Shown: positions 13,780 through 42,111 of the stretch, in pieces
How the letters are laid out: every line of letters starts with the position of its first letter
Position numbering within the stretch: position 1 is the stretch's first letter
Source: Promethearchaeota archaeon
Lineage (GTDB): Archaea; Asgardarchaeota; Lokiarchaeia; Sigyniarchaeales; SOKP01
Length of the DNA: 64,000 nucleotides
Reading direction: 5' to 3'
NCBI GenBank assembly: GCA_048940925.1
Contig: JBHLOC010000025.1
Location: 1 to 64,000 of the forward strand
Notes under the pieces: generated by a model
Databases searched by the model: none
Told to the model about the DNA's origin: nothing
Seen by the model: only the letters and a program-made list of their open reading frames with translations
Made by a program: the position numbers and the translations under genes

Positions 13780-16524
13780 TTAGCAACTATGTTGATTTTC
13801 GTCTAATCTGAATTTATGACTCAAATATTCGTCTATAGCTATTGCTGCTTTTTTTCCTCCTCCCATAGCTGAAATAACAGTGGCAGAGCCTGTAACTATA
13901 TCTCCCCCTGCATAGATACCTTCTAAATTAGTATTACTATTTTCATCAGTCTCAATATATCCCCATTTATCAAGCTTTAATTCTGGAAGTGATTTAATTA
14001 ATATCGGATTAGGAGTAGTGCCTATAGCTATTATGACAGTATCTGTTTCTATGGTATATTCAGAATTTTCAATTGGTATCGGTCTACGACGGTCAGATTC
14101 ATCAGGTTCACCTAAACGCATTTTAATAACCTCCATTTCTTTTACAGATTCATTTTTATCTCCTATGATCTTTTTAGGATTAGTTAAAAATAGAAATTCA
14201 ATTCCCTCTTCAATAGCATGATGATATTCCTCTCTTCTTGCTGGCATCTCATATTCAGACCTCCTATAAACAACTATTACTTTTTTTGCTCCTAATCGTT
14301 TAGCAACCCTAGATGCATCTAACGCAGTATTTCCTCCACCAATAATAGTTACAATTTCACCTACCTTAATTGGGGTGTCATATTCAGGAAATCTATAGGC
14401 CTTCATTAAATTGGCTCGTGTGAGGAATTCATTTGCTGTTAGAACCCCATTAAGAGTCAATCCTGGAATTTTGGGAAACATAGGAAGTCCAGCACCTACC
14501 CCAATAAAAAATGCTTCAAATCCCAGTTGCTTTAATTCTTCTAAAGTTAGAGTTTTCCCTATAATAGAATTATAATGCATTTTCACATCTAACATTTTTA
14601 ATGTTTCAATCTCTTCCTTTACAATTTCTTTTGGTAATCTAAATTCTGGGATACCATATGCCAATACTCCTCCTCCCGTATGAAAAGCCTCAAATATTGA
14701 AACATCATAACCTCTCATAGCAAGTTCTCCAGCGCAAGTTAAACCAGCGGGTCCAGCTCCTATAATAGCGACTTTTATATTTTTTGGGGATTGACAATCA
14801 GGACATTCTTTTAATTGGTTTTTCCTTTCCCAATCAGCAATGAACCTTTCTAAATATCCAATAGCAATAGGCTCATCAAGATTATTTAATAAACATCTTT
14901 CTTCACATTGAATTTCTTGTGGGCACACTCTTCCACAAATAGCCGGCAATAAATTATATTTCTTTATTGCACGAATTGCTTCAATAAATTTCTCTTCTTT
15001 TAGCAATTTTATAAATTTGGGGATATTTATATTAACAGGGCATCCATCAACACATTGAGGATATCCACATTGTAAACATCTATGAGCTTCTAATTTTACC
15101 ATTTCTGGCGTTAAACCCTTAGGTACTTCATGAAAATTTTTTACTCGTATACTAGGGTCTTGTTCAATCATTTTTGGCCTATATATTTCCTTAAAGATTT
15201 TTTGCTTTGATTTTGCTATTCTTTTAAGAGATTGAAAATTATTACTATCCTCCATTATTTGTTTGTATTCAATTAGTTGAAGATCAATAGCCTTTTGGAA
15301 GATATCAGCACCTTTTTTGGTTCTTATAATAACTGTTGACCAACCGGGTTCAGACCCGATCGAACCGACCGAAATATCTGCGTGTTCTGAAGTAAGATCA
15401 TCACAAAAGTAACATGCTAACCTACTATATTTTTTAATTTCATTTACAGGTATAGTATAAATAGAATTATCTTTATGAAAAACAAAAAAGCGTCCTTTAT
15501 CGATATCCATTTTTTTAATATCATTAGGAGAGAGTTGAAATTCTGCTTTCAGAAGAGACTTAATTTGATCATAATTAAATGATTCCATGCAGAACAATCC
15601 TATTTTTAGAATAATATTTTGATAAAAAGAGTTATTCAAAGGATAAAGCATTGTCTTCTTAAGGGCTTTCATCATGCAAGGTGTTCCGACTACGGCGATC
15701 TTTTCATAATTCTTAGAAGAATTCAGAATTCTTAGGTTAGGAGTATTAGTATATTTGGTGCCAGAAGTTATTAACAAGTCTTTTTCATTGTCAACCATAA
15801 CGGGTAGAGGTTTATGTGGTTCGTTAGAAACACTAACTGCTAATGCAGCATCAATCAAATTTTCTCGAAAAGCGGTTTTAAGTAATGTTGTAACAATTCC
15901 TCCATTTTGTGCATTTTTTTTAATTTGATTATCATTAGTCTGTGCTGTATAGATTTCAGAAAAATAATTTAATTGTTCAGAAAATTTAACATCTATATCT
16001 TTATCCTCTCTTAATCTTTTTAGATTTTTTGGAAAGAAGGATCTTGGGCAACAAATAAAGCATAAGCCACAATTAATACATACTTCTTCTTTTATATCAA
16101 AAGAAGTCCCCATATGATGAATTGCATTGACAGGACAAATAGAATCACATAATCCGCATCCACAACATAAATTTTTATCTCTAATTATTGATACATTAGG
16201 AAATAACCCTTTATTCTCATTTTGCTCTATAAATTTTTGAAAAAATCTTGATTGTTTACCCAGAAATTTTAAACAGCCTAATTCTTTTAAATATTCTATA
16301 TTACAAATTAAAGATTTTTCTGTTATCCCTAATTTTTCCTTTAATTTGGGAATATCTATTGAACCAATTTTTTTTATATTTTCTAAAATTTTTTGTCGCT
16401 CTCTTTCTGCTTGAGAGAGGAGTTTTATGAATTCATTAAATTCCTTTTCATTATATCTTTCTGTTTTTATAATCTCATCTTTATTATCAAGGAAAACTCT
16501 AATTAGAGGTGATTGTATTTCCAT
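13780..16524 (-). CDS. Fusion: wHTH + 2x[4Fe-4S] ferredoxin + FrhB (F420-binding) + NfnB/GltD/SudA flavoprotein
   Basis: Ferredoxin CCGCGLCDSICP/CINCGLCFICCP; FrhB motifs GGIVTTLL, VGTPC, IGLFCMESF, ADISVGSIGS..GWSTV; GltD motifs RCLQC..PQCVDGCP, CGRVCPQEIQCE, GAGPAG, GGGNTALD. Confidence 0.9.
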   Translation of the reverse strand: MEIQSPLIRVFLDNKDEIIKTERYNEKEFNEFIKLLSQAERERQKILENIKKIGSIDIPKLKEKLGITEKSLICNIEYLKELGCLKFLGKQSRFFQKFIEQNENKGLFPNVSIIRDKNLCCGCGLCDSICPVNAIHHMGTSFDIKEEVCINCGLCFICCPRSFFPKNLKRLREDKDIDVKFSEQLNYFSEIYTAQTNDNQIKKNAQNGGIVTTLLKTAFRENLIDAALAVSVSNEPHKPLPVMVDNEKDLLITSGTKYTNTPNLRILNSSKNYEKIAVVGTPCMMKALKKTMLYPLNNSFYQNIILKIGLFCMESFNYDQIKSLLKAEFQLSPNDIKKMDIDKGRFFVFHKDNSIYTIPVNEIKKYSRLACYFCDDLTSEHADISVGSIGSEPGWSTVIIRTKKGADIFQKAIDLQLIEYKQIMEDSNNFQSLKRIAKSKQKIFKEIYRPKMIEQDPSIRVKNFHEVPKGLTPEMVKLEAHRCLQCGYPQCVDGCPVNINIPKFIKLLKEEKFIEAIRAIKKYNLLPAICGRVCPQEIQCEERCLLNNLDEPIAIGYLERFIADWERKNQLKECPDCQSPKNIKVAIIGAGPAGLTCAGELAMRGYDVSIFEAFHTGGGVLAYGIPEFRLPKEIVKEEIETLKMLDVKMHYNSIIGKTLTLEELKQLGFEAFFIGVGAGLPMFPKIPGLTLNGVLTANEFLTRANLMKAYRFPEYDTPIKVGEIVTIIGGGNTALDASRVAKRLGAKKVIVVYRRSEYEMPARREEYHHAIEEGIEFLFLTNPKKIIGDKNESVKEMEVIKMRLGEPDESDRRRPIPIENSEYTIETDTVIIAIGTTPNPILIKSLPELKLDKWGYIETDENSNTNLEGIYAGGDIVTGSATVISAMGGGKKAAIAIDEYLSHKFRLDENQHSC

Positions 16525-16525
16525 T

Positions 16526-17416
16526 TTAAGGAGTTTCACCTTCCATCTTTTCCATTGCTTTACATTTTTGTTTATATCGTTCTAATGAAATTTTTTCTTG
16601 CTCAACAAACCTATTAGCACGACTTAAAAGATTATCAAAATCTACTACATGACCATCAACATCTGGTCCATCAACACAAGCAAAAAGTATTTCTCCAGTT
16701 TTAGTTGAGAATCGACATCCTCCACACATCCCTGTTCCATCAATCATTATTGTGTTTAAAGATACATAAGTTTTTACCTTAGGTAATCCTTCAATTCCAC
16801 TAGTGAGAATAGAAACATTTTTCATCATAATTAATGGACCAATTGCGATAACAACACTAATTTTTTCTTTTTCTAACAAGTCTTTTAGAGGTTTAGTTAC
16901 AAAGCCCTTTATTCCCTCAGTCCCATCATTTGTACAAGTAATCACTCTATCACTAACGACATTCATTTTGTCTTTCCAAAATAATAATTCACGTGTTTTT
17001 GCACCTACAATTGATATAACCTTATTACCTGCATTTTTCAATTCTTTTGCCTGTGGAAAACATTCAGCAATACCCACTCCCCCTCCAACTATAACAATGG
17101 GATTTTCATATTTTTCAATATGAATTTTATTTCCAAGTGGTCCAATCACATCTAAAATTTCATCATCGACATTCTTATGTGAAAGCAATAGTGTAGATTT
17201 TCCAACTACTTGAAAAACTATAGTGATAATTCCTTTTTCGCTACTATAATCGGCAATAGTAAGAGGAATTCTCTCACCGGTCTCATTTATTCGAATTAAT
17301 ACAAAATTACCAGCAAATGCCTTTTTCGCAATTAAAGGGGCCCTTACATCAATTTCAAATAAAGTTCCACTATTTCCAAGCTGAATTTTTTTTAGTATCT
17401 TGTAGGGCATAAGCAA
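16526..17416 (-). CDS. nfnA: NfnA/SudB-type FAD/[2Fe-2S] subunit of an electron-bifurcating transhydrogenase
   Basis: ERIPLTIAD, GPLG, GGGVGIA, and MIDGTGMCGGCR...CVDGP (Asp/Cys3 [2Fe-2S] motif); abuts the downstream fusion gene. Confidence 0.88.
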   Translation of the reverse strand: MLMPYKILKKIQLGNSGTLFEIDVRAPLIAKKAFAGNFVLIRINETGERIPLTIADYSSEKGIITIVFQVVGKSTLLLSHKNVDDEILDVIGPLGNKIHIEKYENPIVIVGGGVGIAECFPQAKELKNAGNKVISIVGAKTRELLFWKDKMNVVSDRVITCTNDGTEGIKGFVTKPLKDLLEKEKISVVIAIGPLIMMKNVSILTSGIEGLPKVKTYVSLNTIMIDGTGMCGGCRFSTKTGEILFACVDGPDVDGHVVDFDNLLSRANRFVEQEKISLERYKQKCKAMEKMEGETP

Positions 17417-23302: not shown

Positions 23303-24136
23303 TTAAATTAGTTGACTACAGTAATTCATAGCAAAAGGTCTTTTAGAAATTGGTTTAATAGCTTTAAAAGGTTTTTTTCTAATAATTTCGAGGGAAATAT
23401 TGAATGTTTTACAGAAATCTTTTATATAAAAGTCGATTTCTTTCTGTTCTTCTTCTAAAAGTTCAGAAACTTGTGCCCCAACACCTAACCAACCTTCGAC
23501 ATTTTTATCCGTTCTAAGATAAATAACGCCTCTATGAATCCCTGTTCCTAATTCTGTTCCACAAATAGGCTGTTGATTCTCAATAATTGTGCCATTTGGT
23601 AAGAATTTTAGACCAAGCACAATAATTTTACCACCTGCCATATACTCGCCCAAGAAATCTTTAGCTGTGCCACCGATTATTAAAATAGGAAATTGATTTT
23701 TATATTCTTTCATATGGATACCAACTCTATAACCCACGTCTCCCTTGACATAGATTTTTCCACCTCTTGAAGATAATCCGATAACATCCCCTCCATCTCC
23801 ATAAATTATTAATGTTCCTTCATTCATTGTATTTCCTGTTTGATCCTCACAATTCCCAATAACACTAATTTTAGGACCATCCATAAAAATTCCTAAATCA
23901 TTACCTGGAACTCCATTAATAATTATTTCTACATTTCCTTGTAAAGCTGCACCTATAAATCTCTGCCCACAAACATTGTTTAATACAATATTTTTACAAT
24001 TATTTTTAACGGCATCATTGATCATAGAATTTAATTCTCTATAGTCAATTGGTTCTCCATTTGGGGCAGCATTTATCTCTAGAGGTTCTATTCTATCCAT
24101 TTCAAAATTTTTAACTTCAATATCATTCATTATCAT
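23303..24136 (-). CDS. gltB3: Glutamate synthase domain 3 subunit (GXGXG beta-helix, GltB3)
   Basis: GQRFIG, GNDLGIFMDG, GYRVGIHMK, FLGEYMAGG; start could also be 24154. Confidence 0.9.
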   Translation of the reverse strand: MIMNDIEVKNFEMDRIEPLEINAAPNGEPIDYRELNSMINDAVKNNCKNIVLNNVCGQRFIGAALQGNVEIIINGVPGNDLGIFMDGPKISVIGNCEDQTGNTMNEGTLIIYGDGGDVIGLSSRGGKIYVKGDVGYRVGIHMKEYKNQFPILIIGGTAKDFLGEYMAGGKIIVLGLKFLPNGTIIENQQPICGTELGTGIHRGVIYLRTDKNVEGWLGVGAQVSELLEEEQKEIDFYIKDFCKTFNISLEIIRKKPFKAIKPISKRPFAMNYCSQLI

Positions 24137-24140
24137 AGTT

Positions 24141-25661
24141 TTATTCACCAGCATGTTTTACTCCTAAAATATCCGCAATATGCGGATTTGGACCAATATA
24201 CCTTAATCGGTCTCTATTTGAGCGAAGAGATTCCACAGAATCTATTCCCATCGCTCCTAAAACTTCCTTTAATTCTTCATTCCAAGAATGAAATAAATTT
24301 ATGATTCTTTTTTTTGAAACATCAATATCTAATCTCTTCACTAAAATTTCTTGCTGTGTTGCGATACCCCATGAACAAAGACCTCTAAAGCATTGCTGGC
24401 AGACTCGACATCCCATTGCTATTAATACCGGTGTACAACACATAGCTATATCTGCCCCTAATGCAATAGCTTTGATCAAATCGGCAGAATATCTAATAGA
24501 GCCCCCAGCAATTAATGTTATCTCTTCTCTCAATCCTTCTTGCCTTAACTTTTCATCAACAACTGCAATGGCTATCTCAATAGGGATCCCTGCATGATCT
24601 CTAATAATTCTTGGCGCAGCACCAGTACCCCCTCTAAAACCATCAATTGTTAGGAAATCGGCACCACCTTTAACTATTCCTATCGCAATTGGGGCTGAAT
24701 TATGTACTGCCGCAATCTTTACTCCCACAGGAACCTTATATCTTGTTGCTTCTTTTAATGCTGCTATTAATTGAGCTAAATCCTCTATTGAATAAATATC
24801 ATGATGAGGATATGGAGATAATGCATCACTTCCCTGTGGAATCATACGCGTTTGCGAAATTAAATTGCTTACTTTTTCACCTGGGAGATGGCCACCGTGC
24901 CCAGGTTTTGCTCCTTGCCCTATTTTGATTTCTAGACCTGCTGCATTATGTAAATAATTAATATCCACACCAAATCTTCCTGATGCGACTTCAGTAATAA
25001 TATTTGGAGCATATTCATAAAAATCTGGATGTAGACCCCCTTCTCCTGAACCTGCTACAATATTTAATTCTTTTACTGCTTGATATATTGCTTGACATGC
25101 ATTGTAGCTAATTGACCCTAAAGACATATGACCAACCATAATTGGCATATCTATTTCAAAATTAGGAAAGAGATTTGTCTTTAATGAAATATCGTTAATA
25201 TCATCATAATCACCTGAAAAATTAAGCTGCTTTAACTTTCGTCCAAATATTATTTTAGTTTCTATTGTCTCTCTCAATGGATCAATACTAGGATTTGTGA
25301 CTTGGCAAGCGTCAAGAAGTAGGTCATCAAAGATGGATCTAATCGGTCTATCATTGCCCGTTGCTGAAAGTAAAACGCCTCCATTTCCTGATTGAGCCCA
25401 AATTATATTTCTAATTTTTCTAGTATAGTTACCATGTTGGGGTAAATAAGCATCATTTTGAACAATGCGTATCGCCTTTCCTGGGCACATAACTACACAT
25501 CTTTGGCACGCTACGCATTTATTGTCATCAGCAATTATTCGTTCTCCATTGAAATATAGTACTCCAAATGAACAATTATTTACACATCTTTTACATTTCT
25601 TACAATTCTCTTGATTAATATTTACTCTATAATAAGGGAGAATCTCATGTACTATAGCCAA
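24141..25661 (-). CDS. gltB2: Glutamate synthase domain 2 subunit (FMN-binding, N-terminal 2x[4Fe-4S]; GltB2)
   Basis: CKKCKRCVNNC/CVACQRCVVMCP, EIKIGQGAKPGHGGHLPGEKV, HHDIYSIEDL, CRVCQQC...C. Confidence 0.95.
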   Translation of the reverse strand: MAIVHEILPYYRVNINQENCKKCKRCVNNCSFGVLYFNGERIIADDNKCVACQRCVVMCPGKAIRIVQNDAYLPQHGNYTRKIRNIIWAQSGNGGVLLSATGNDRPIRSIFDDLLLDACQVTNPSIDPLRETIETKIIFGRKLKQLNFSGDYDDINDISLKTNLFPNFEIDMPIMVGHMSLGSISYNACQAIYQAVKELNIVAGSGEGGLHPDFYEYAPNIITEVASGRFGVDINYLHNAAGLEIKIGQGAKPGHGGHLPGEKVSNLISQTRMIPQGSDALSPYPHHDIYSIEDLAQLIAALKEATRYKVPVGVKIAAVHNSAPIAIGIVKGGADFLTIDGFRGGTGAAPRIIRDHAGIPIEIAIAVVDEKLRQEGLREEITLIAGGSIRYSADLIKAIALGADIAMCCTPVLIAMGCRVCQQCFRGLCSWGIATQQEILVKRLDIDVSKKRIINLFHSWNEELKEVLGAMGIDSVESLRSNRDRLRYIGPNPHIADILGVKHAGE

Positions 25662-25663
25662 TT

Positions 25664-26857
25664 TTATACCTCCATTTTAGATAAATTATGTTTTATCAAT
25701 GGTATTTCAAGACCATTTTTAATTAATCCTTTCCCCTGTTTAGCTATAACAACAGATCCACTCTTCGGATGCCAAATATCAAGCAAATCGAATTTATCGT
25801 CATCAAGCATCAACCTTCTAAAGGAGGATTCTTCACTGCTCATATACACAGTATTCTTATCTTCACTAATTCCAACTACTAAAGGCCGTAGTTTTTTTCT
25901 ATCAGATAATCCTATCATAGTAGGAATAGGATCTGAATAACCAACAACAATAGAAAACGGTCCATTCAACATAGCACTTCTATAAGTTGCTCTTATATTT
26001 TTGTATATTACTTGAGTTTTATTATCTAATTTTTCAATTTCTTCATATAATGGTGGTGCTAAAGCAATAGCAACGAGAGGTATTGGGATTTTATGTTTAC
26101 GGCATAATAAGTCAAACAGATACGCGATAACTTCTGTGTCAGTAAAAAGAGTACATTTATATCCAAACGAATCTAAGTACCTTTTATTTGTTCCATAGGA
26201 TGTTATCTCACCATTATGAACCACCGAACAATTTAATAGATTAAATGGATGTGCCCCGCCCCACCATCCAGGAGTATTTGTTGGAAATCTTGAATGTGCC
26301 AACCACATATACGCTTTATATTCTGAAATTTTATAAAAATCTGCAATTTCATATGACCAGCCATTACCTTTAAAAACACCCACATCTTTGCCAGATGACA
26401 TCACAAATGCATTTTCAATATTAGCATTGATAGCCATTACTATTTGGACTATTTTTTCATCGTTATCTTCGTTATTATAGTTTTCTGGATCAAAGAACAC
26501 TCTCCAGATTATCGGAGGATTGATCACCTCAGAATGCATCTTTGTTGGTATAGGCTCCGATTTGATTATTTTACCATTTTTTTCCAAATATTTTAGGGTA
26601 TTTGATTTTGCATTTTCATTGTCAAAAAGAAAATGAAATGCATAATAATTTTTATATTCAGGATAAATTCCGTATCCCGCAAAACCCGCACCAAGACCAT
26701 TTTCTCTCTCCTTCAAAATACATAACATTTCAATTACTTTATCCCCTGAAACTCTATTCCCATCAGTGTTTATAAAACCAGATATTCCACATCCATCAAA
26801 TACTCGCTGATTTCTATATTGTGCGGGTAAAGATGTATAATTTTCCCATCTCATCAC
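25664..26857 (-). CDS. gltB1: Glutamate synthase domain 1 subunit (class II glutamine amidotransferase, GltB1)
   Basis: Propeptide then CGISG, HSRFPTNT...GAHPF, VHNGEI, TDTEV, DRKKLRP. Confidence 0.93.
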   Translation of the reverse strand: MMRWENYTSLPAQYRNQRVFDGCGISGFINTDGNRVSGDKVIEMLCILKERENGLGAGFAGYGIYPEYKNYYAFHFLFDNENAKSNTLKYLEKNGKIIKSEPIPTKMHSEVINPPIIWRVFFDPENYNNEDNDEKIVQIVMAINANIENAFVMSSGKDVGVFKGNGWSYEIADFYKISEYKAYMWLAHSRFPTNTPGWWGGAHPFNLLNCSVVHNGEITSYGTNKRYLDSFGYKCTLFTDTEVIAYLFDLLCRKHKIPIPLVAIALAPPLYEEIEKLDNKTQVIYKNIRATYRSAMLNGPFSIVVGYSDPIPTMIGLSDRKKLRPLVVGISEDKNTVYMSSEESSFRRLMLDDDKFDLLDIWHPKSGSVVIAKQGKGLIKNGLEIPLIKHNLSKMEV

Positions 26858-26860
26858 TTT

Positions 26861-28219
26861 TCACTCTCTCATGTTTGAAGAATCCGGTTTTATGTTTTCA
26901 TTCTCTATAATATTAAATAGTTTTTTCAAATCTCCAACTTTAGGTTTATTAGTTTCTAACCCTACTCTATTACGGGCTGATTTTGATAATAAACCAATAA
27001 TTCCTTTCTGATAAAAGGAATAGAATTCACGTGCATATCCTTTTGTAGCATATCCTCGCTCTGTCGCGAGATTACGTAAAATTGAAAAAATTTCAATCAT
27101 ACCAACTCTCATAGGACAAAGCTCATAACATAAATAACAATCAAGACACAGCCAAATTGACTGATCAGATATGACCTCTTCAACTCTTCCTTCAAGGAGC
27201 TTATAGACAATTTCGCTTGGTCTGAATTCGGTCAATTTTGATATGATACAGTCATCGTCACATGCTCTACATGAATAACATTTGAATAAGAAATTAGGAT
27301 CGAAATATTTTCTTATTTCCCTATTTTTTGCTTTAATATCTTCAATTTTTTTAAAAAGTGATTTGACTTGCGTTCTGTGGTACTTTTTCATCAATTCTCG
27401 AATATTAATCTCTAGGGCAATACATAATAATTCTGAATAATATAACACGGGAATATCGTAATTACGATCTTCTTTTTTTAAATCTTGTTGCAAATGATCA
27501 AATTGAATAAAACACTGAGGACAACACACAACAATACAATCAATCTTATTCTCCTTCATACTTAATAATTTCGCATTAATTATTTCTAATGATAAATTTG
27601 GACTCCCAGCTCTCCCAAGACTTCCTCCACAACATTCCATTTTAAATTCATAATCAATACTTTGAGCACCTAAATCTCTAATCAAATCATCAAATAAAGT
27701 TGGCTCAAGTGGATCATCAGTCTGTACTTTATTGCTTGGTCTAAGGAAGTGACAACCATAAAAAACCGCAATCCTTAACCCCGTTAATGGAAACTTTAAA
27801 TTATCTTTTATCGTCTCCCTTCTGAATTTGAAAACGAATTCGACCAAATGATAAATGTTACAATCTCCACGGACTTTAAGATCAATTTTATCCAAATATT
27901 CATTGATCTTCTCTTTTAAATGATGATCTTCTTCAATTTCACCTTTCACTTTTTTGAAGGTTGTAAAACACCCATTACAAGGAGTTAAAATAGCTTTATT
28001 CTCCATCTCAGCAAGACTAAGATTTCGAGCTGCCGTTAAATAGAACAACAATTTATTAGAATTTTTAATCCCATTCGGCTCAGGACAACAAGAAAACTTT
28101 GAATTTTCAGTAAAAGCAATCCCTAAATAATCTAATACATTTCTTATTGAAACTTCTATAAAAGGAAGCCGATATGTTATAGTGCATCCTGGGAATAAGA
28201 CTATCTCATGATTAATTAT
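26861..28219 (-). CDS. Heterodisulfide reductase HdrB-HdrC fusion; N-terminus extends beyond the ORF-track start, apparent ATA/ATT start
   Basis: Frame upstream of 28051 reads IINHEIVLFPGCTITYRLP...FSCCPEP (first CCG domain). Second CCG domain FYGCH/ECCGG/CCPQC; HdrC clusters CYSCRACDDDC and CLDCYLCYELCP. Confidence 0.88.
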   Translation of the reverse strand: MINHEIVLFPGCTITYRLPFIEVSIRNVLDYLGIAFTENSKFSCCPEPNGIKNSNKLLFYLTAARNLSLAEMENKAILTPCNGCFTTFKKVKGEIEEDHHLKEKINEYLDKIDLKVRGDCNIYHLVEFVFKFRRETIKDNLKFPLTGLRIAVFYGCHFLRPSNKVQTDDPLEPTLFDDLIRDLGAQSIDYEFKMECCGGSLGRAGSPNLSLEIINAKLLSMKENKIDCIVVCCPQCFIQFDHLQQDLKKEDRNYDIPVLYYSELLCIALEINIRELMKKYHRTQVKSLFKKIEDIKAKNREIRKYFDPNFLFKCYSCRACDDDCIISKLTEFRPSEIVYKLLEGRVEEVISDQSIWLCLDCYLCYELCPMRVGMIEIFSILRNLATERGYATKGYAREFYSFYQKGIIGLLSKSARNRVGLETNKPKVGDLKKLFNIIENENIKPDSSNMRE

Positions 28220-33441: not shown

Positions 33442-34944
33442 ATGACAAGTACTAAAGAAAGTTTTGTAAAAGGGATTATAGAACCAAGTGTAAACGCTGT
33501 AGAAGCAGCTAAAAAGATCCTCGAAGCGGAACAAGTAAAGTTCGTGTTATGTGCTTTTACAGATGTTCGAGGTATTTTTCAGAGTTTTAGCTCTCCTGTT
33601 CATCATTTTTTAAAAGGAGATCAATATTTTGAAACGGGAATTGGTTTTGATGGGTCGAGTATACGAGGATTTAGAGAACTTCACACTAGTGATATGATTT
33701 TCTATCCTGATCCTCAAGCTTTATATATCCTTCCTTGGACGACCGGTTTTCAAAAAACTGCAGTTTTAATAGGAAATATACGTGAACCGTTCGGAAGTAT
33801 AGAAGCTGCTGACTGTGATCCTAGAGGATATGTAGCGCAGCGTGCCATAGATAAAGCTTCAGAATTGGGCTATACATCTTACTTTGGACCTGAAATTGAA
33901 TTTTTTGTTTTTAAGTCTATAGATCCAAGTAAGTTAGATTATGATATTTTTACCAGCCCAAAGGGAGGTGCAGGAGATAGTTGGGGCCCACCAAGAGTGA
34001 ATCCCGTATCTCCCGAAACCGAGATTGGGGGGTATATATTAAGACCTAAAGAAGCATACTTTAGGAATCCTCCTGAGGATACTACTAATGGTTATCGTAA
34101 CGATCTTACAAATACACTCGAAACAATGGGATATACCGTTGAGATGCATCACCATGAGGTCTCTACTAAAGGACAAGTTGAAATAAACTATCGTTATAGT
34201 GACCTATTGGACACTGCGGATAAAGTTCAGATTTACAAGCTTGCTGCACGAAATATTGCTGCTAAATATGGATGGATTGCAACATTTATGCCAAAACCAA
34301 TTTATTTAGATAATGCTAGTGGTATGCATGTTCATAATTCAATGTTCAAGGATGGTGAAAATGCTTTCTGGGATCCAGATGATGATTATGCTGAGATTAG
34401 TCAGGAATGTAGGTATTATATTGGTGGCCTTCTCGAACATGCTGAAGCATTAACGGCGATATGTTGCCCAACAGTCAATTCATATAAACGATTAGTTCCT
34501 GGATTCGAGGCTCCTATTAATATTATGTATAGTCGAAGAAATAGATCAGCATTAATCCGAATTCCAGTGTATTTAAAAGGTGAAAAATACAAAAATAGAA
34601 GACGTATAGAATATAGGGGAGTTGATCCCTCAACAAACTCTTACTTTGCTTTTGCGGCAATATTAACGGCAGGATTAGATGGAATTAAAAAGAAGATTGA
34701 TCCTGGTGACCCTGTAGATAAGGATGTTTATGAAATGTCTGAATCAGAGAAAAAGTCTGCTGGTGTGAAACAATTACCAACAACTCTAAAAGATGCATTG
34801 GACATTATGGAAACTGATTCAATATCAAAAGAAATTCTTGGATCTCATCTCTATGATGCCTTCGTAGAATACAAAACAAATGAATGGAATCAGTTTTGTC
34901 TTTATGTAACACCTTGGGAAATTATGAAATATTTAGACTACTAA
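33442..34944 (+). CDS. glnA: Glutamine synthetase type I
   Basis: FDGSSIRGF, GPEIEFF, HHEV..GQVEI, TFMPKP...SGMHVH, NSYKRLVPGFEAP, NRSALIRIP, IEYRGVD. Confidence 0.95.
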   Translation: MTSTKESFVKGIIEPSVNAVEAAKKILEAEQVKFVLCAFTDVRGIFQSFSSPVHHFLKGDQYFETGIGFDGSSIRGFRELHTSDMIFYPDPQALYILPWTTGFQKTAVLIGNIREPFGSIEAADCDPRGYVAQRAIDKASELGYTSYFGPEIEFFVFKSIDPSKLDYDIFTSPKGGAGDSWGPPRVNPVSPETEIGGYILRPKEAYFRNPPEDTTNGYRNDLTNTLETMGYTVEMHHHEVSTKGQVEINYRYSDLLDTADKVQIYKLAARNIAAKYGWIATFMPKPIYLDNASGMHVHNSMFKDGENAFWDPDDDYAEISQECRYYIGGLLEHAEALTAICCPTVNSYKRLVPGFEAPINIMYSRRNRSALIRIPVYLKGEKYKNRRRIEYRGVDPSTNSYFAFAAILTAGLDGIKKKIDPGDPVDKDVYEMSESEKKSAGVKQLPTTLKDALDIMETDSISKEILGSHLYDAFVEYKTNEWNQFCLYVTPWEIMKYLDY

Positions 34945-35209
34945 TTAAATTTTACTTATTTTTTGATAATTCAAATCTCCAAACCATAAAAATGAAAAAG
35001 AGATATAATATTAGTTGCGAAAGGCATTTAGACGAGAAAAATTTTTTAATTGAATACTATTGTTGTGAATACTCTTGAGGCGAGATATTAATAAATAGGT
35101 GATTAATTTATTTTTCAGATCAGAAACACAATTTAGAGTTAATTAGTCTGAAATAATCTAAACTTCAGGAAGGTTGAAAAGTGTGGCAGATAGTAAGAAT
35201 TGTGAAAGA

Positions 35210-35247
35210 AATGTAATTAAACTCGAGAATTCGATGGCAATTACATT
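35210..35247. repeat. Inverted repeat / stem-loop upstream of the RHH gene
   Basis: AATGTAATT (35210-35218) and AATTACATT (35239-35247) enclose TCGA-GAAT-TCGA. Confidence 0.6.
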
Positions 35248-35324
35248 CACCCAAGAATGGTTTAATAAAACTCACTTGAAAGATATTTATATCAAGAATA
35301 TTAGAAGCAAAATTGCGATAGAAA

Positions 35325-35912
35325 ATGAATGAATTAGAAAATAATCACACGATAAATGACAGGATAACTATTGCAATAGATGAGCAAACAAAACAAATAT
35401 TAAATCAGTTAAATAATCACTCGGAGAGTTCTCGATCTGAAACAATAAGAAAAGCAATTAAATTTTATCATAAATTTAAGAAAGTTTTTGATCAAAAAGA
35501 AAAGGGGGTATCTGCTCAGGTAAACACTTACTTAGAATTACTTTCTAATGGAGAACATATTATTTTAGATGTAGATCATTATCTAACATTTTTAAAATTT
35601 ATTGAAAATTCCCCGAATAAAGATCAGTTTGATGATTTCAATAAATCAATTGGTAGGGCTCATGCAGAAGAATTTTCTCATGATCTTAATATAACTACAG
35701 TCCAAAAAGTAGTAGAACGCCTTGAAGCATGCAATTTTTTCAAAATAATTAAAGATTCATCTAACAAATGTACCCTACTTTTAGGATCTGACATTCAAAA
35801 GAACTTTATTAAGACTTTTTTAGAAGAAGTCTTAAAAGGTATGGGTTTTAAAGTAAGTATTAACGAAGGATTTTCTAAATTAAAGATAATTATAGAGGAT
35901 TTTTCAATTTAG
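35325..35912 (+). CDS. CopG/ribbon-helix-helix regulator with C-terminal ligand-binding-like domain
   Basis: RITIAIDEQTKQILNQL...SRSETIRKAI RHH pattern. Confidence 0.8.
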   Translation: MNELENNHTINDRITIAIDEQTKQILNQLNNHSESSRSETIRKAIKFYHKFKKVFDQKEKGVSAQVNTYLELLSNGEHIILDVDHYLTFLKFIENSPNKDQFDDFNKSIGRAHAEEFSHDLNITTVQKVVERLEACNFFKIIKDSSNKCTLLLGSDIQKNFIKTFLEEVLKGMGFKVSINEGFSKLKIIIEDFSI

Positions 35913-36190
35913 AATTCTTCATTCTTTTAAATACAATCTTCAGGATTTTCAAATTGATATATATAATTTTCTCTGCTGCTGTTCTTCGATAAATAACGCT
36001 ATATTTTAACTTTGGTTCGAATGTAATCTCAAGTTGATTATTCTCTTCATTATCTTTCATCCCCGAATTCGATCTATTGTCCAATCTAAGCTGTTATTAT
36101 AAATTACGTCATTTTGATTTTTTCGCTCACTGATTTGAAAACATCCAAAGTATTGTAAGTACCTAAATAAAGAAAAAAATTACTTTTGAA

Positions 36191-36532
36191 CTATAAAATA
36201 TCGTCTCCCTTTTCTCTCGTTCTTATTCTTATTGCGGTTTCGATAGGCATAATAAAGATTTTTCCATCCCCAGGTTTTCCTGTTTGGGCTTTTTCAATAA
36301 TAGTATCTACAATTTCATCAATATTTATTTTCTCACTCACTACAATCTCAAGTTTTAATTTATCAATCCATTCTATGCAATATTTACCAGACCTATCTAC
36401 CAGTTTTATTCCACGCTGGTGTCCATGACCTTTTACTTTATGGATACTCATACCTTTTATGTCTTTTTCAAATAATCCAGATTTAATTGCTTCTAATTTC
36501 TCCGGTCGTATAAAACACTCTATTTTTTTCAT
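36191..36532 (-). CDS. glnK: PII nitrogen regulatory protein
   Basis: MKKIECFIRP, T-loop GHGHQRG...KY, TGKPGDGKIF, IRIRT; directly downstream of amtB. Confidence 0.95.
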   Translation of the reverse strand: MKKIECFIRPEKLEAIKSGLFEKDIKGMSIHKVKGHGHQRGIKLVDRSGKYCIEWIDKLKLEIVVSEKINIDEIVDTIIEKAQTGKPGDGKIFIMPIETAIRIRTREKGDDIL

Positions 36533-36550
36533 CTTATTTTTATACCTCCA

Positions 36551-37750
36551 TTATGCTTTTTCTCCGTGGATTGAAATATCTATACCTACGTATTCTTCTT
36601 CTTCAGATGCTCTCAAACCAATTAGTTTATCGATCACTTTCGCAATTACCCAAGTTATTACAAAAGTATATCCAATTGTCGCTATAATTCCTACAGTTTG
36701 AATCCATACTTGTCCAGGGTTGCCTGATATTAATCCTGTAGCCCCCACACTTGCAAAAATTCCGGTAGCAATCGCGCCCCAAATACCTCCCCATCCATGA
36801 ATAGCCCACGCATCTAAAGATTCATCAATTTTCGATTTTGAACGCCAAGAAAGTATACCATAACAAATTATTGCAACCACAGCCCCGATTATCAATGCGA
36901 CCCACGGTTGAACAAAACCAGCAGCAGGAGTAATTGCGACCAGCCCCGCTAAACCACCCGTTGCTAATCCAAGAGTACTAAATTTTCCCGTTTTATAATA
37001 TTCTATAATCATCCAAACTAAGGCTGCTACACTCGCCGCTAATTGTGTATTAAACATAGCTAATACAGCGGTACTGTCTGCAGCTAAAGCACTCCCCCCA
37101 TTAAACCCAAACCATCCTAACCAAAGTAGTCCCATTCCTAGTAATACATTAGGAATATTTGAAGGTTCTATCGATTCTTCTTGATATCCTTTCCTTGGCC
37201 CAATTACCAGGGCAACTGCTAAGGAGGCAAATCCTACATTTACATGCACAACGGTACCTCCAGCGAAATCCAGAGCTCCTAGAAAACCTAACCACCCACC
37301 ATCTCCCCAAACCCAATGGGCTATAGGAGAATATACTATTATCAGCCAGATTGAGATAAATATCATGAATGCTTTAAAATTAACTCTCTCTGCGAAAGGA
37401 CTTGCTATAATCGCTACAGTAATTATTGCAAACATCAATTGAAACGCCATATATAAAAGATGTGGTATTGTATCAGAATATACTGGATAGGCTTCTGTTC
37501 CTACTCCGAAAAGTGCAAGGAAATTAAAGCCTCCAATAAATCCACCACCCATATCGGGAGCAAAAGCCAAACTATAGCCAATTATGAACCAACCAACTGT
37601 TACTATTAATATTGAGACAAAACACATTGCCATCATATTTATAATATTCTTCTTACGTAGCAAACCCCCATAAAAGAATGCTAACCCCGGAGTCATAATA
37701 AAAACTAACCCAGTACATATCAAGATAAAAGATATATCTCCACTTGACAA
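36551..37750 (-). CDS. amtB: Ammonium transporter
   Basis: MTPGLAFFYGG, DFAGGTVVH, WFGFNGGS, GLVAITP, twin-His retained (AIHG). Confidence 0.97.
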   Translation of the reverse strand: MSSGDISFILICTGLVFIMTPGLAFFYGGLLRKKNIINMMAMCFVSILIVTVGWFIIGYSLAFAPDMGGGFIGGFNFLALFGVGTEAYPVYSDTIPHLLYMAFQLMFAIITVAIIASPFAERVNFKAFMIFISIWLIIVYSPIAHWVWGDGGWLGFLGALDFAGGTVVHVNVGFASLAVALVIGPRKGYQEESIEPSNIPNVLLGMGLLWLGWFGFNGGSALAADSTAVLAMFNTQLAASVAALVWMIIEYYKTGKFSTLGLATGGLAGLVAITPAAGFVQPWVALIIGAVVAIICYGILSWRSKSKIDESLDAWAIHGWGGIWGAIATGIFASVGATGLISGNPGQVWIQTVGIIATIGYTFVITWVIAKVIDKLIGLRASEEEEYVGIDISIHGEKA

Positions 37751-38142
37751 ATTTATCCACTTTAATAATATTTTAATTTTATTAATTATGGTTTCATTTG
37801 ATTTAGATTTTGTATTCTAAAACTCAAATATAATGAAAAACATCGAATATAAAAGGTTAATTGAGAAAAAAAATTATAGATTAAGATCTTTTAGCTAATT
37901 TTATTAACGATCATGTATTGAATAACAATAAGTTCTTTCATTTTATGAAAAAATATGAAATACTCATAAAAGATTGAATAAATAAATAATAATAAAGAAA
38001 AAATATCTAAGTTTTTACAATATCATGAGAAAATTAAATATATGTACCAGGTAAATTTCACTATTAGTTCATAATATAGTTTATATGAAAAAATATAATT
38101 GAGTATAATAGAATATATTGAAAAAAAATAAAATGAAGAGAA

Positions 38143-39495
38143 ATGATTGAAAAAGACGATCCAAAAAGGAAAGAGATTTGTGATAAAGTAATAGAGAAGA
38201 TTAAAGAAGAGGATATAAAATTTATTTATCTTCAATTTACTGATATCCATGGAATTATTAAATCTTTTGAAATAAACTCCAAGAGGATTGAGGATATTTT
38301 TGAAGTAGGTGAGAATTTCGACGGGAGTTCTATAACGGGTTACGGAGCGATTGAAGAGAGTGATAAAGTTGCACTTCCTGATCCTAGCACATTTTATCTT
38401 TTGCCTTGGAGAAAAGAAAATAAGGTTGCAAGGGTAATTTGTGATATCTATAAACCTGATGGAAAACGGTATGAAGGAGACCCTCGCAGAATATTACAAA
38501 GAGCTGTCAATAAAGCAAAAGAACTAGGTTATGATTACTATTGTGCTCCAGAAATGGAGTTCTTCATATTAACCCCAGATACCGAAAAAGCATTTAAGCC
38601 CTCAGATATGAGAGGATATTTCGATTATGATCCATATGATGTTAACGAAATAATAAGGTATAGAATTGCAGAATATTGCGATGCAATGGGTATTTCTGCA
38701 GAGTGTGTACATCATGAAGTTGCATTTGGACAGCATGAGGTAGATTTCAGATATGATGAAGCAGTAAATACAGCAGATAACACAGTTACAATAAAAACGA
38801 TAGTTAAAACTGTCTCGGCGCAACATAATTTATTAGGAACATTTATGCCTAAACCTTTTGATGGGATTAATGGATCAGGCATGCATGTACATCAATCTTT
38901 ATGGAATAATGGGAATAATATCTTTTATGATGAAAATGATAAAGATCATATTTCGATTATCATGAAAAGATGGATTGCAGGTCAATTAAAACACGCTATC
39001 TCGATGTGTGCTGTTTTAAGTAGTTGGCCTAATTCTTATAAGAGATTAGTTCCTGGATTTGAGGCTCCAGTTTATCTTGCTTGGGGTTTTAGGAATAGAT
39101 CTCCTTTAATCAGGGTACCAGATTTTCATAATAAATCCACCGCAGCTAGATGTGAAATTCGTTGTCCAGATCCTGCTGGTAATCCTTATCTTCAATTTGC
39201 TGTTCTTCTCGCTTCAGGATTAGATGGGATTTTATCAGAGGAAATTGACATTCCTGAACCAACCGATAGAAATGTATATCATTTATCTTCAAAAGAAATG
39301 GAAAAAGAAGGTATTATTTCATTACCAGGGAGTCTTAGTGAAGCTTTAAAGTATTTTAGAGATTCAGAATTTATGAAGGAAGTTTTCGGAGAATTAGCAT
39401 TTAAAAACTACTATTATGCCAAATTGGAGGAATTTGATAAATACAGAGTCGTAGTGAGCGAATGGGAGAGAAATAGATATATAACTCATTTGTAG
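38143..39495 (+). CDS. glnA: Glutamine synthetase type I (second, shorter GSI-alpha-like copy)
   Basis: FDGSSITGY, APEMEFF, HHEVAFGQHEV, FMPKP..NGSGMHVH, NRSPLIRVP, CEIRCPD. Confidence 0.95.
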   Translation: MIEKDDPKRKEICDKVIEKIKEEDIKFIYLQFTDIHGIIKSFEINSKRIEDIFEVGENFDGSSITGYGAIEESDKVALPDPSTFYLLPWRKENKVARVICDIYKPDGKRYEGDPRRILQRAVNKAKELGYDYYCAPEMEFFILTPDTEKAFKPSDMRGYFDYDPYDVNEIIRYRIAEYCDAMGISAECVHHEVAFGQHEVDFRYDEAVNTADNTVTIKTIVKTVSAQHNLLGTFMPKPFDGINGSGMHVHQSLWNNGNNIFYDENDKDHISIIMKRWIAGQLKHAISMCAVLSSWPNSYKRLVPGFEAPVYLAWGFRNRSPLIRVPDFHNKSTAARCEIRCPDPAGNPYLQFAVLLASGLDGILSEEIDIPEPTDRNVYHLSSKEMEKEGIISLPGSLSEALKYFRDSEFMKEVFGELAFKNYYYAKLEEFDKYRVVVSEWERNRYITHL

Positions 39496-39721
39496 GTTTC
39501 TTTTTTTCATTGAAATAGTAATTCAGTCAATTTAAAACATAGAAATATTTTATATTTAATTTAAAATCTATTTTTCTTTTAATTATATTATGTTTTGCTG
39601 AATGCAGAACAAAAATATTAGAATTAAGGGTTGTAGTTAACATAAAGCATTTCAATTTATATAAAATAAAGATTTATCAAATTATGTTCATCCAAAATTT
39701 TTCAAAATTAAGGTTTTTTAA

Positions 39722-39880
39722 ATGAAAGAGGTTACTAAAATATTAAAAGGAAATATCAATAAATTGGTTGATCTAATCAATGAATTTTTAAGAAAGAATG
39801 CAGATAAGAATGCCGAATTGGTTTCTGTTGCTAATTTTGGAGATCGCAAATATTTAGCATTCCTTCAATATGATGTATGA
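39722..39880 (+). CDS. 52-aa small protein, not in ORF track
   Basis: MKEVTKILKGNINKLVDLINEFLRKNADKNAELVSVANFGDRKYLAFLQYDV*; beta-alpha-beta-beta-like pattern; AAGGT upstream. Confidence 0.55.
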   Translation: MKEVTKILKGNINKLVDLINEFLRKNADKNAELVSVANFGDRKYLAFLQYDV

Positions 39881-39934
39881 TAAATCCAAGATAAACAATA
39901 AAATTCAGATTATATAATTATCAATCCTCTTTTT

Positions 39935-40201
39935 TTGATTAAATTTTCTAAAGAAATTTCTGATCAGCAATTTCAGATCTTTAATGGGATCTCTTCTAAA
40001 TGCGTACGATTAGAAAAAGAAAACCTTATAAAACAGGCTAAAAAAATTAACTAAGAGAAAGAAAAGTTAGAACTGGAGAAAAGAAAAACAAAATTGAAAG
40101 ACAGAAGGTTTTTGATAATTTTGGGAATTGCATTGCTTGGGATCACTGGTGTTGGCACCACTATCGTCATGAGTATCCACCATTGTAGTAGATATGGATG
40201 A
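39935..40201 (+). pseudogene. Interrupted coiled-coil plus C-terminal TM protein
   Basis: ...LEKENLIKQAKKIN*(TAA 40052)EKEKLELEKRKTKLKDRRFLIILGIALLGITGVGTTIVM... Confidence 0.45.
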
Positions 40202-40268
40202 ACAAGCAATAGTAACCACAAGAGAATAAAAATATTTATAAAATGGATTACAAAGGAGATAGAATTAC

Positions 40269-40337
40269 ATGGATTTTTCACACAAATTAGTGGTAGTAAG
40301 TGAATGGGAAAAAAACAGATATATAACTCATTTGTAA
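40269..40337 (+). other. 22-codon ORF / diverged duplicate of the glnA (38143) 3' end
   Basis: MDFSHKLVVVSEWEKNRYITHL*; 40290-40337 matches 39448-39495 at 41/48 nt; AGGAG at 40254-40258. Confidence 0.75.
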
Positions 40338-40461
40338 TCCTTTTTCTTGACTTTTTTTATATAGCTTTTAAGATTAATTTAAAGTCTTTATACAACTTAT
40401 TTTTATATATATAAAATTTATACAAAAAACAAGATAATAATATATTTTGAGTGTTTAAAAA

Positions 40462-42111
40462 ATGCGAAATTCAAAATTAAAGGTTTTAATTGCTCAAATT
40501 AATCCTATTGTAGGAGATATTAACCATAACGCAAAAAAAATAATTGATATTATAAGAGACAATCAGGATTGTGATATTATAGTTTTTCCTGAAATGGCAC
40601 TTGTTGGCTATCCAATTATGGATCATATTTATGATCCAGTGATCAAAAATAGAAATCTTGATGCTATTAGAAAAATCAAGCAAACCAAAACGCAGGCAAC
40701 AATAATTTTAGGAACTTTTACAGAACCAGAAAATTTAAAGGGAAAAATCCAGCGGTTTTATAATTCTGCTGTTATAATCGAAAATAATGAAATAAAAGCT
40801 TACGTCAATAAACGCTTATTACCAAATTATGATATATTTGATGAGAGAAGATATTTTTCATTTGATGATAAATACGAACCTTTGGAACTCAAGGGATATA
40901 AAGTAGGAATATTAATATGTGAAGATATATGGGATGAGCATTATGATATAAAAGTAGCAAGGAATTTAGTTTCTAATGGTGCTGAAATTTTAATCGTTAT
41001 AAATGCTTCTCCGTATCACATAAATAAGTTTAGGTTAAGAAGTGATTTAGTTAAGGAGAAATCTAACAGTCTTTCAGTCCCTGTCATATATGTAAATATG
41101 GTGGGTGGTCTTGATGAAATAGTATATGATGGTCAAAGTTTTATAACAAATAAGTTTGGTCAGATAATTTTTAAAGCAAAAGCATTTGAAGAAGATATCT
41201 GCTCATTTGAAGTCCCTATGAAAGATAATGAGCTAATTAAAGAAAAAGATTATACAATTGAATGGAGAGATGAAGCGATAAATGCTCTAACATTAAATTT
41301 ATATGATTATTATTATAAAAGTGGAATTTTTGATGGTGTCGTTTTAGGGCTAAGTGGAGGGATTGATTCAGCTTTTACTGCTTATATTTGTGATAAAGCT
41401 CTTGGTTCAGATAAAGTAACAGCTATTATGATGCCCACAAAATTTACTTCAAAAGAAAGTATTAATCTTGCCCGCAACTTATGTGAGAATTTAAACCTTA
41501 AGTATATAATCCATCCTATTGATGAATTATTTGATGTTTATGAGACTAATTTAGAAAAAAATCTAGGAAATTTACCTTTTGATATAGCAGATGAGAATCT
41601 ACAAGCAAGAATTAGAGCAAATGTTTTGATGTATTATTCAAATAAATTCAATTGGTTATTAGTTTCCACTGGTAATAAATCCGAGATTGGAGTAGGTTAT
41701 TGTACTTTATATGGTGATACATGCGGAGGGAAAAATGTTCCTGGAGATCTTTTAAAAGTTCAAATATATGAAATCTGTAATTGGATTAATAAAGAGAAAG
41801 AAATAATTCCTAAAGGGATTATTGAAAGACCTCCAACTGCAGAATTACGAGAAAATCAAAAAGATAGTGATTCATTACCTACTTATGAAATCCTTGATGT
41901 AATATTAGAGGAAATAATTGAGAATGGAATTGGTTCTGAATTTACAAATTTGAAAAGTAAGGGTTATGATATTAATATAATCAATAAGGTAAGAAACCTT
42001 TATTTAAATTCAGAATATAAACGCAGACAATTAGTTCAAACAATTAAAGTGAGTGAAAGTGCTTTTGGAATCGGGAGGAGATATCCTGTATTAAAAAAAA
42101 TAAAATTCTAA
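40462..42111 (+). CDS. nadE: Glutamine-dependent NAD+ synthetase
   Basis: Nitrilase domain (FPE, K.LLPNY, ICED) plus LSGGIDS, ENLQARIR, TGNKSE, PTAEL. Confidence 0.95.
   Translation: MRNSKLKVLIAQINPIVGDINHNAKKIIDIIRDNQDCDIIVFPEMALVGYPIMDHIYDPVIKNRNLDAIRKIKQTKTQATIILGTFTEPENLKGKIQRFYNSAVIIENNEIKAYVNKRLLPNYDIFDERRYFSFDDKYEPLELKGYKVGILICEDIWDEHYDIKVARNLVSNGAEILIVINASPYHINKFRLRSDLVKEKSNSLSVPVIYVNMVGGLDEIVYDGQSFITNKFGQIIFKAKAFEEDICSFEVPMKDNELIKEKDYTIEWRDEAINALTLNLYDYYYKSGIFDGVVLGLSGGIDSAFTAYICDKALGSDKVTAIMMPTKFTSKESINLARNLCENLNLKYIIHPIDELFDVYETNLEKNLGNLPFDIADENLQARIRANVLMYYSNKFNWLLVSTGNKSEIGVGYCTLYGDTCGGKNVPGDLLKVQIYEICNWINKEKEIIPKGIIERPPTAELRENQKDSDSLPTYEILDVILEEIIENGIGSEFTNLKSKGYDINIINKVRNLYLNSEYKRRQLVQTIKVSESAFGIGRRYPVLKKIKF

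Follow-up and report, generated by a model that had tools for sequence, protein, structure and literature searches.

To our knowledge, all characterised electron-bifurcating Nfn enzymes use ferredoxin or flavodoxin on the low-potential arm. Those closest to the locus described here, NfnAB of Thermotoga maritima (4YLF) and NfnI of Pyrococcus furiosus (5JCA), are two-gene pairs, and none of the four Nfn patterns of PMC6405883, where F420 and Frh are not mentioned, has an extension of ∼450 residues. We analysed a window of 64,000 nucleotides from a Promethearchaeota archaeon of the class Lokiarchaeia (assembly GCA_048940925.1, contig JBHLOC010000025.1, positions 1 to 64,000), in which nfnA (16526..17416, minus strand) is directly followed by a fusion gene (13780..16524, minus strand) joining an N-terminal domain, a 2x[4Fe-4S] ferredoxin-like domain and an FrhB domain to NfnB. 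Like the T. maritima and P. furiosus enzymes, this is a two-gene pair with all cofactor motifs (55–57% identity, Z ∼40 over the large subunit); unlike them, it has ∼450 extra N-terminal residues on the large subunit and has lost a basic residue after the last cluster cysteine. On sequence grounds, we lean towards reading the pair as an NfnAB-type bifurcating enzyme with a low-potential arm ending in a built-in F420 reductase, which would catalyse 2 NADPH + NAD+ + F420 -> 2 NADP+ + NADH + F420H2.

The 2x[4Fe-4S]-FrhB module has relatives in the ACDS zeta subunit (8RIU_B) and FwdI (8RJA_E) of Candidatus Ethanoperedens thermophilum, in FpoF/FqoF and in the N-terminal half of Fsr, and such a module moves a ferredoxin-type enzyme onto F420 (PMC11493965). 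In these systems, non-bifurcating enzymes carry it as a subunit of its own, or it is fused to sulfite reductase, whereas here it is joined to a bifurcating-type flavoprotein, carries a winged-helix-like domain and shares only ∼32% identity with them. Methanogen F420-dependent glutamate synthase and GltD also have FrhB- or GltD-type electron entry near glutamate genes, but the C-terminal half of the present fusion is NfnB, is paired with nfnA and lies outside the glt cluster. In the HdrA-NfnB fusions of ANME-1 (PMC9012536) and in NfnABC/StnABC, an NfnB-like unit is similarly grafted on other redox modules; the partners, however, differ, and none joins FrhB to NfnB. Fno (F420H2:NADP+ oxidoreductase) would link the same two pools as the fusion, although this small protein is unrelated, transfers the hydride directly and is not coupled to NAD. 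The first-pass annotation of this locus had not recognised the architecture as characterised, and our literature searches also found no paper on an FrhB-NfnB fusion, with the proviso that most subscription papers were outside their scope and an earlier mention is possible.

The fusion gene is a single open frame. Its likely start is ATG 16524, one base past the nfnA stop, which gives a protein of 914 aa; residue numbers below are counted from GTG 16539 (919-aa frame). On the minus strand, it comprises the N-terminal helical or winged-helix domain (16225..16524), the 2x[4Fe-4S] domain (16039..16185), the FrhB domain with sites for FAD, [4Fe-4S] and F420 (15184..15972), and the NfnB domain with two [4Fe-4S] clusters, the bifurcating FAD and NADP(H) (13813..15174). 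Pfam places 2x[4Fe-4S] at residues 119-167, FrhB_N at 196-272, FrhB_C at 279-429, Fer4_20 at 465-575 and Pyr_redox_2 at 589-893. The predicted model of the fusion has a pLDDT of 83 and a pTM of 0.79. The order given in the first-pass annotation, a canonical NfnA right before a ∼915-aa fusion and then gdhA on the same strand, is present in full.

The small subunit NfnA (a-FAD, NAD(H), [2Fe-2S]) is of the NfnI type. Its likely start is ATG 17410, and it scores 350 bits against PRK06222 (cut-off 220). It matches P. furiosus NfnI-S at E 5e-84 (285 bits) versus E 6e-43 (151 bits) for Xfn-S, the motifs ERIPLT, TNDGTEG and DGTGMCGGC are all found, and the TNDG-x-G loop, which Xfn lacks, aligns with that of NfnI. 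The C-terminal half of the fusion matches T. maritima NfnB at E 4e-168 versus E 8e-81 for GltD, and in the predicted model it overlays NfnI-L with a Z of 41. TIGR01317 and TIGR01318 score below cut-off on the fusion and TIGR01316 above it; the latter also fits NfnB-type proteins. In the alignment, Glu564 corresponds to T. maritima Glu117 and Arg634 to Arg187, the partner of FAD N5 (PMC6405883). The seven cysteines, Glu564, Arg634 and Arg759-Arg760, the pair expected at the NADP phosphate, are invariant in 90/90 homologues. Every sequence feature by which an Nfn is recognised is present, including the ERxPxT FAD motif, the Asp/Cys3 [2Fe-2S] motif and adjacency to nfnB as given in PMC6405883, and the locus is an NfnAB pair, as had been annotated, rather than a glutamate synthase (GOGAT) small subunit. 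Databases call homologues of the fusion 'NADPH-dependent glutamate synthase', but we rejected GltD or an F420-dependent GOGAT small subunit given the far higher NfnB score, the nfnA partner and the position of the glt genes, 5.9 kb off behind opposite-strand genes.

Sequence conservation and the model both support an intact FrhB module of the F420 type. The eight cysteines of the tethered 2x[4Fe-4S] domain are invariant in 90/90 homologues, as are FrhB Cys288/317/376/379, which match Cys104/134/192/195 of M. marburgensis FrhB (PMC3591093). The FAD and F420 sites named for that protein (PMC3591093), Lys75-Tyr76, Ser209-Val210, the IGKGK turn and the GG helix N-cap, correspond to Lys262-Tyr263, Ser393-Ile394, IDKGR and Gly213-Gly214 of the fusion, each kept in 81–90 of the 90 homologues. 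This agrees with the full FrhB domain of the first-pass annotation; the degenerate F420- or FAD-binding residues that it had raised as a possible objection were not found. The module most resembles the subunits that reduce F420 in the CODH and Fwd complexes of the ethanotroph, together with FrhB. Its model superimposes on 8RIU_B with a Z of 39.9 (rmsd 2.6 over 342 residues) and on 8RJA_E with a Z of 35.9, and its layout is that of FpoF (NF040616 match). When the module and the NfnB half were predicted together as a complex, the score was 0.06, and the result was not used as evidence.

The fusion layout recurs in ∼95 public protein clusters, the named ones being Promethearchaeota or Lokiarchaeota; among the best 150 profile-search matches there was only one long representative. 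It is found in at least 58 of 151 Lokiarchaeia genomes (in 54 as one long frame), all of them in the window's own family, and in a phylum-wide sample of 201 genomes the module occurred, at the threshold used, in this family only. A few fusion records carry other Asgard names in NCBI, and those matched belong to the same family according to GTDB. An apparent 630-aa short form was a mis-called start in the one case checked (P0103). Of 62 fused loci, 61 have nfnA immediately upstream; in the remaining one, the copy is interrupted by a stop.

In the tree, the 62 fused modules all group in a single clade (SH-aLRT 99). Its sister group consists of ∼500-aa stand-alone genes that share this order of winged-helix, ferredoxin and FrhB domains and sit in a conserved Hdr cluster directly after selenocysteine HdrA and MvhD. 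In the NfnB tree, 57 fused genes fall in a supported clade with seven unfused genes nested within it, while the positions of five further fused genes outside the clade are not resolved by the tree. The seven unfused genes are secondary losses, since they are nested in the fused NfnB clade. By these trees, the module originated once and was later lost in seven genomes. Decay of the module before loss was considered but found no support, as the sister genes of the losers keep 91–95% of conserved FrhB positions and only the fusion of G007 is clearly damaged. That copy (L039:7451-10039) lacks ∼50 FrhB residues and the GG cap; another damaged fusion, in G086 (L109), has a TAA within FrhB_C. In close relatives, the same locus holds either plain nfnA-nfnB-gdhA or a NuoG-like-NfnA fusion with nfnB.

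One position of NfnB tracks the module. Codon 553 (14881..14883, minus strand), Asn in the window, lies four residues after the ligand Cys549, the counterpart of T. maritima Cys100, a ligand of the distal cluster. The position is Lys or Arg in all 62 unfused genes (55/55 never-fused genes and 7/7 secondary losses) and is basic in only 4 of the 62 fused genes; it is the only one of 464 columns that shows this pattern. Such a basic residue would favour the docking of an acidic ferredoxin; that it was lost and then regained suggests that the module occupies the face of the distal cluster and replaces ferredoxin docking. A weak hint comes from the model, in which the FrhB-family structural alignments end on residues 552-559 and the 553 loop may be placed against the module. 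Soluble ferredoxin has probably been replaced by the module, as the first-pass annotation had also supposed. Elsewhere in the genome there is a second, unfused NfnB (63% identical) with no adjacent nfnA (L135:9144-10511; G000:C85:45143-46510), which keeps a basic residue at 553 and sits on a long branch.

The gene content supports F420 synthesis in this genome, a check that had been suggested for the locus: cofG, cofH, cofD and cofE are over cut-off, and the F420-dependent Mtd is present over cut-off. By contrast, no Fno, FrhA or Mer-like gene in the genome, and no Fno in the 151 genomes of the class, is over cut-off. Fused genomes carry cofG in 52 of 58 cases, and of the other six, the four tested all have cofD. 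In family f2, no cofG was found in 13 genomes, and Nfn is only unfused where the locus could be read (11 genomes). The idea that the fusion replaces a lost Fno was set aside, as Fno is absent in fused and unfused genomes alike and its co-occurrence is uninformative.

In the proposed mechanism, NfnA and the fusion protein would form a complex in which NADPH reduces the NfnB FAD. One electron would pass via the [2Fe-2S] cluster and FAD of NfnA to NAD+. The other would run along the pair of NfnB clusters, then the tethered ones and the cluster of FrhB, and so reach the FrhB FAD; after two rounds, this FAD would give a hydride to F420. The enzyme would reoxidise NADPH, for which glutamate oxidation by the neighbouring Thermococcales-type glutamate dehydrogenase (GDH) could be a source, and would supply F420H2 in a cell with neither Fno nor Frh. 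Only tentatively would we go further and see in it a self-contained, ferredoxin-free bifurcating enzyme coupling NADPH, NAD+ and F420, in which the drop from NADPH to NAD+ pushes F420 more reduced than NADPH alone could, and which forms the main NADP-F420 link in a Lokiarchaeia family without Fno and Frh.

Energetics bears on the direction. With NAD at −280 mV, NADPH at −370 mV and F420 at −340 mV, the proposed reaction yields ∼−23 kJ/mol, or −15 kJ/mol with F420 at −380 mV. The NADPH and F420 potentials are from PMC6405883 and PMC9012536. In P. furiosus NfnI, the clusters of the low-potential branch lie at −513 and −718 mV (PMC6405883), and transfer from F420H2 (∼−340 mV) to P. furiosus-like NfnB clusters would be 173 and 378 mV uphill. 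Precedent enzymes with such a module reduce F420, while ferredoxin is reduced eightfold more slowly (PMC11493965). Because the reverse is uphill to the clusters and the precedents reduce F420, oxidation of NADPH with F420 and NAD+ as acceptors seems favoured. F420H2, the electron donor according to the first-pass annotation, would be a poor one for a branch with such clusters, and reduction of F420 from NADPH is more likely.

Several points weigh against this reading. Standard potentials put the reaction close to equilibrium (+4 kJ/mol), so that its direction hangs on the pool ratios, and the cluster potentials are borrowed from P. furiosus. As F420 is about as reducing as NADPH, there would be little energy gain unless the F420 pool is strongly reduced. 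The pattern at position 553 was found post hoc, and with 2–3 informative independent pairs the sign test (p 0.25–0.5) is not significant. In the genome, cofC is a weak match only (63 bits, cut-off 105), and there is a distant gene of the F420_oxidored family (71 bits). Most unfused genomes of the window's own family also have cofG and lack Fno; F420 is therefore a precondition here and not a predictor of the fusion. By the same token the fusion is dispensable, and seven genomes have lost it.

Still, the alternatives fare less well. An unlikely one, although with arguments of its own, is a three-way hub, in which soluble ferredoxin docks on the tethered 2x[4Fe-4S] domain and, when reduced, feeds both Nfn confurcation (NADH + ferredoxin -> NADPH) and F420 reduction as in FpoF. 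Methanosarcina FpoF, the layout of which the module shares, reportedly has ferredoxin:F420 activity. The transfer from ferredoxin to F420 would yield −15 to −31 kJ/mol, and in the ethanotroph, complexes equipped with such a module have kept a slow reduction of ferredoxin (PMC11493965). An open link of this kind would, however, drain low-potential electrons unless gated. Fused forms have also lost the basic residue close to the distal cluster, although ferredoxin may instead dock at a new site on the tethered domain.

We regard as improbable the direction of the first-pass annotation, in which confurcation of F420H2 and NADH yields 2 NADPH for GDH/GOGAT. It would gain ∼−4 kJ/mol at standard potentials but cost +15 to +23 kJ/mol at usual physiological ratios, and it faces the uphill steps to the NfnB clusters given above; PMC9012536 argues alike for FrhB on PFOR and CODH. 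Many other FrhB genes in the genome could supply F420H2, and nitrogen assimilation genes are abundant in the window. In particular, gdhA (13559/13535-12288, minus strand), encoding the Thermococcales-type GDH, follows 221–244 AT-rich nt downstream of the fusion, and it is directly next in 15 of 19 fused genomes of the window's own genus. In the wider comparison, however, gdhA directly follows 17 of 50 fused versus 30 of 52 unfused copies, and other fused copies adjoin MtdA-like, Hdr-like or unrelated genes. The GOGAT genes gltB1-B2-B3 (23303-26857) are 5.9 kb from the fusion with three plus-strand genes between, and the same glt neighbourhood also surrounds unfused copies. As the gdhA and glt context is common to the unfused form, the glutamate link is not specific to the fusion and is not its purpose. 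Thus, of the original interpretation, the NfnAB pair, the F420-type FrhB domain and the probable replacement of ferredoxin stand, while 'feeding GDH/GOGAT' does not.

It is likewise improbable that the enzyme is not bifurcating or does not use F420, being either a plain F420H2:NADP+ transhydrogenase in the stead of Fno, which is missing class-wide, or an FrhB fold with another acceptor. FrhB folds that do not use F420 exist (HCAR, 5DQR, Z 24.9), and Xfn/NfnII has the Nfn fold but no NAD-dependent activity (PMC6405883). However, the module matches F420 reductases at E 1e-54 and HCAR at only E 5e-11, an intact, NfnI-like NfnA has stayed next to the fusion, and Arg634 is invariant.

An assembly chimera or accidental read-through, a possibility raised by the first-pass annotation and by the 8% contamination of this metagenome-assembled genome (MAG), is next to negligible: contigs from three runs span the FrhB-NfnB junction near 15183 with no mismatch, one of them from another study (a mangrove metagenome) and one possibly the source sample, the single frame is complete in 54 genomes, and GC3 is even across genes (0.17–0.19). 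The fusion architecture is real.

If the proposed bifurcating NADPH:NAD+/F420 enzyme is confirmed, an Nfn ending in F420 would test whether bifurcation stays coupled with an acceptor only about as reducing as NADPH, and it would account for the link between F420 and NADP in Lokiarchaeia that make F420 but lack Fno. Close relatives provide natural controls, as their genes at this locus are fused, never fused or secondarily unfused, with one residue following the switch. In addition, a ferredoxin-free enzyme from NADPH to F420H2 could serve F420 biocatalysis.

The N-terminal ∼100 aa of the fusion, its least conserved part (48% mean identity), have no Pfam match over cut-off. Three weak lines agree that they look like a winged helix: helix-turn-helix (HTH) families match at E 0.004–0.05, the atlas score is 0.86, and the model of the domain resembles many HTH folds at Z 5.4–7.2 over ∼50 residues, among them Lrp/AsnC-type folds at Z ∼7. 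The domain also matches the tail of the long MvhD of the Hdr cluster (probability 90%, 78 columns) and is related to the N-terminus of Hdr-cluster FrhB genes. It probably came from the Hdr cluster, as baggage or as a part for docking, because the stand-alone genes there share the layout and because of the match to the MvhD tail. Since the domain is also found in MvhD tails, a structural role is as likely as DNA binding. In the Hdr cluster at L131:4121-6547 (G000:C41:144120-146546), hdrA and mvhD read through four and three TGA codons, respectively, at Cys-like positions, consistent with selenocysteine, and the stand-alone paralogue of the module is next.

FrhB-type genes number about a dozen in this genome, and several of them are joined to other redox domains. 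An 822-aa protein in an hdrCBA-mvhD cluster (L133:8466-10934; G000:C55:64465-66933) has a GltD-like unit inside the FrhB domain, which makes it the genome's second FrhB/GltD-type fusion, of another layout. A 608-aa ferredoxin-FrhB-NfnA/PyrK-like fusion lies at the end of an apparent 2-oxoacid:ferredoxin oxidoreductase operon (L134:3215-5041; G000:C45:9214-11040).

Fused loci also vary. In G077, two tandem full-length fusion copies stand behind one nfnA (L031:7361-13742), and in G031 (L158:1220-5978), as well as in related loci, the fused pair is present a second time, behind an MtdA-like (Mpt_N) gene. In G062 (L183:1-5924), a NuoG/molybdopterin-family-NfnA fusion of >1000 aa precedes the FrhB-NfnB fusion, so that two Nfn extensions are joined; G020 (L143) has the same arrangement with the former gene cut by the contig end.

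A promoter and terminator scan of the locus gave chance-level counts, the scan being bacterial and the host archaeal. In the window, an HdrB-HdrC fusion (26861-28201, minus strand) lies directly upstream of gltB1-B2-B3 and is a possible electron partner of GOGAT; its homology reaches 28201, so that it starts earlier than the listed TTG. Further along, a nitrogen cluster assigned by sequence (33442-42111) comprises two glutamine synthetases, PII, an ammonium transporter and a glutamine-dependent NAD synthetase.

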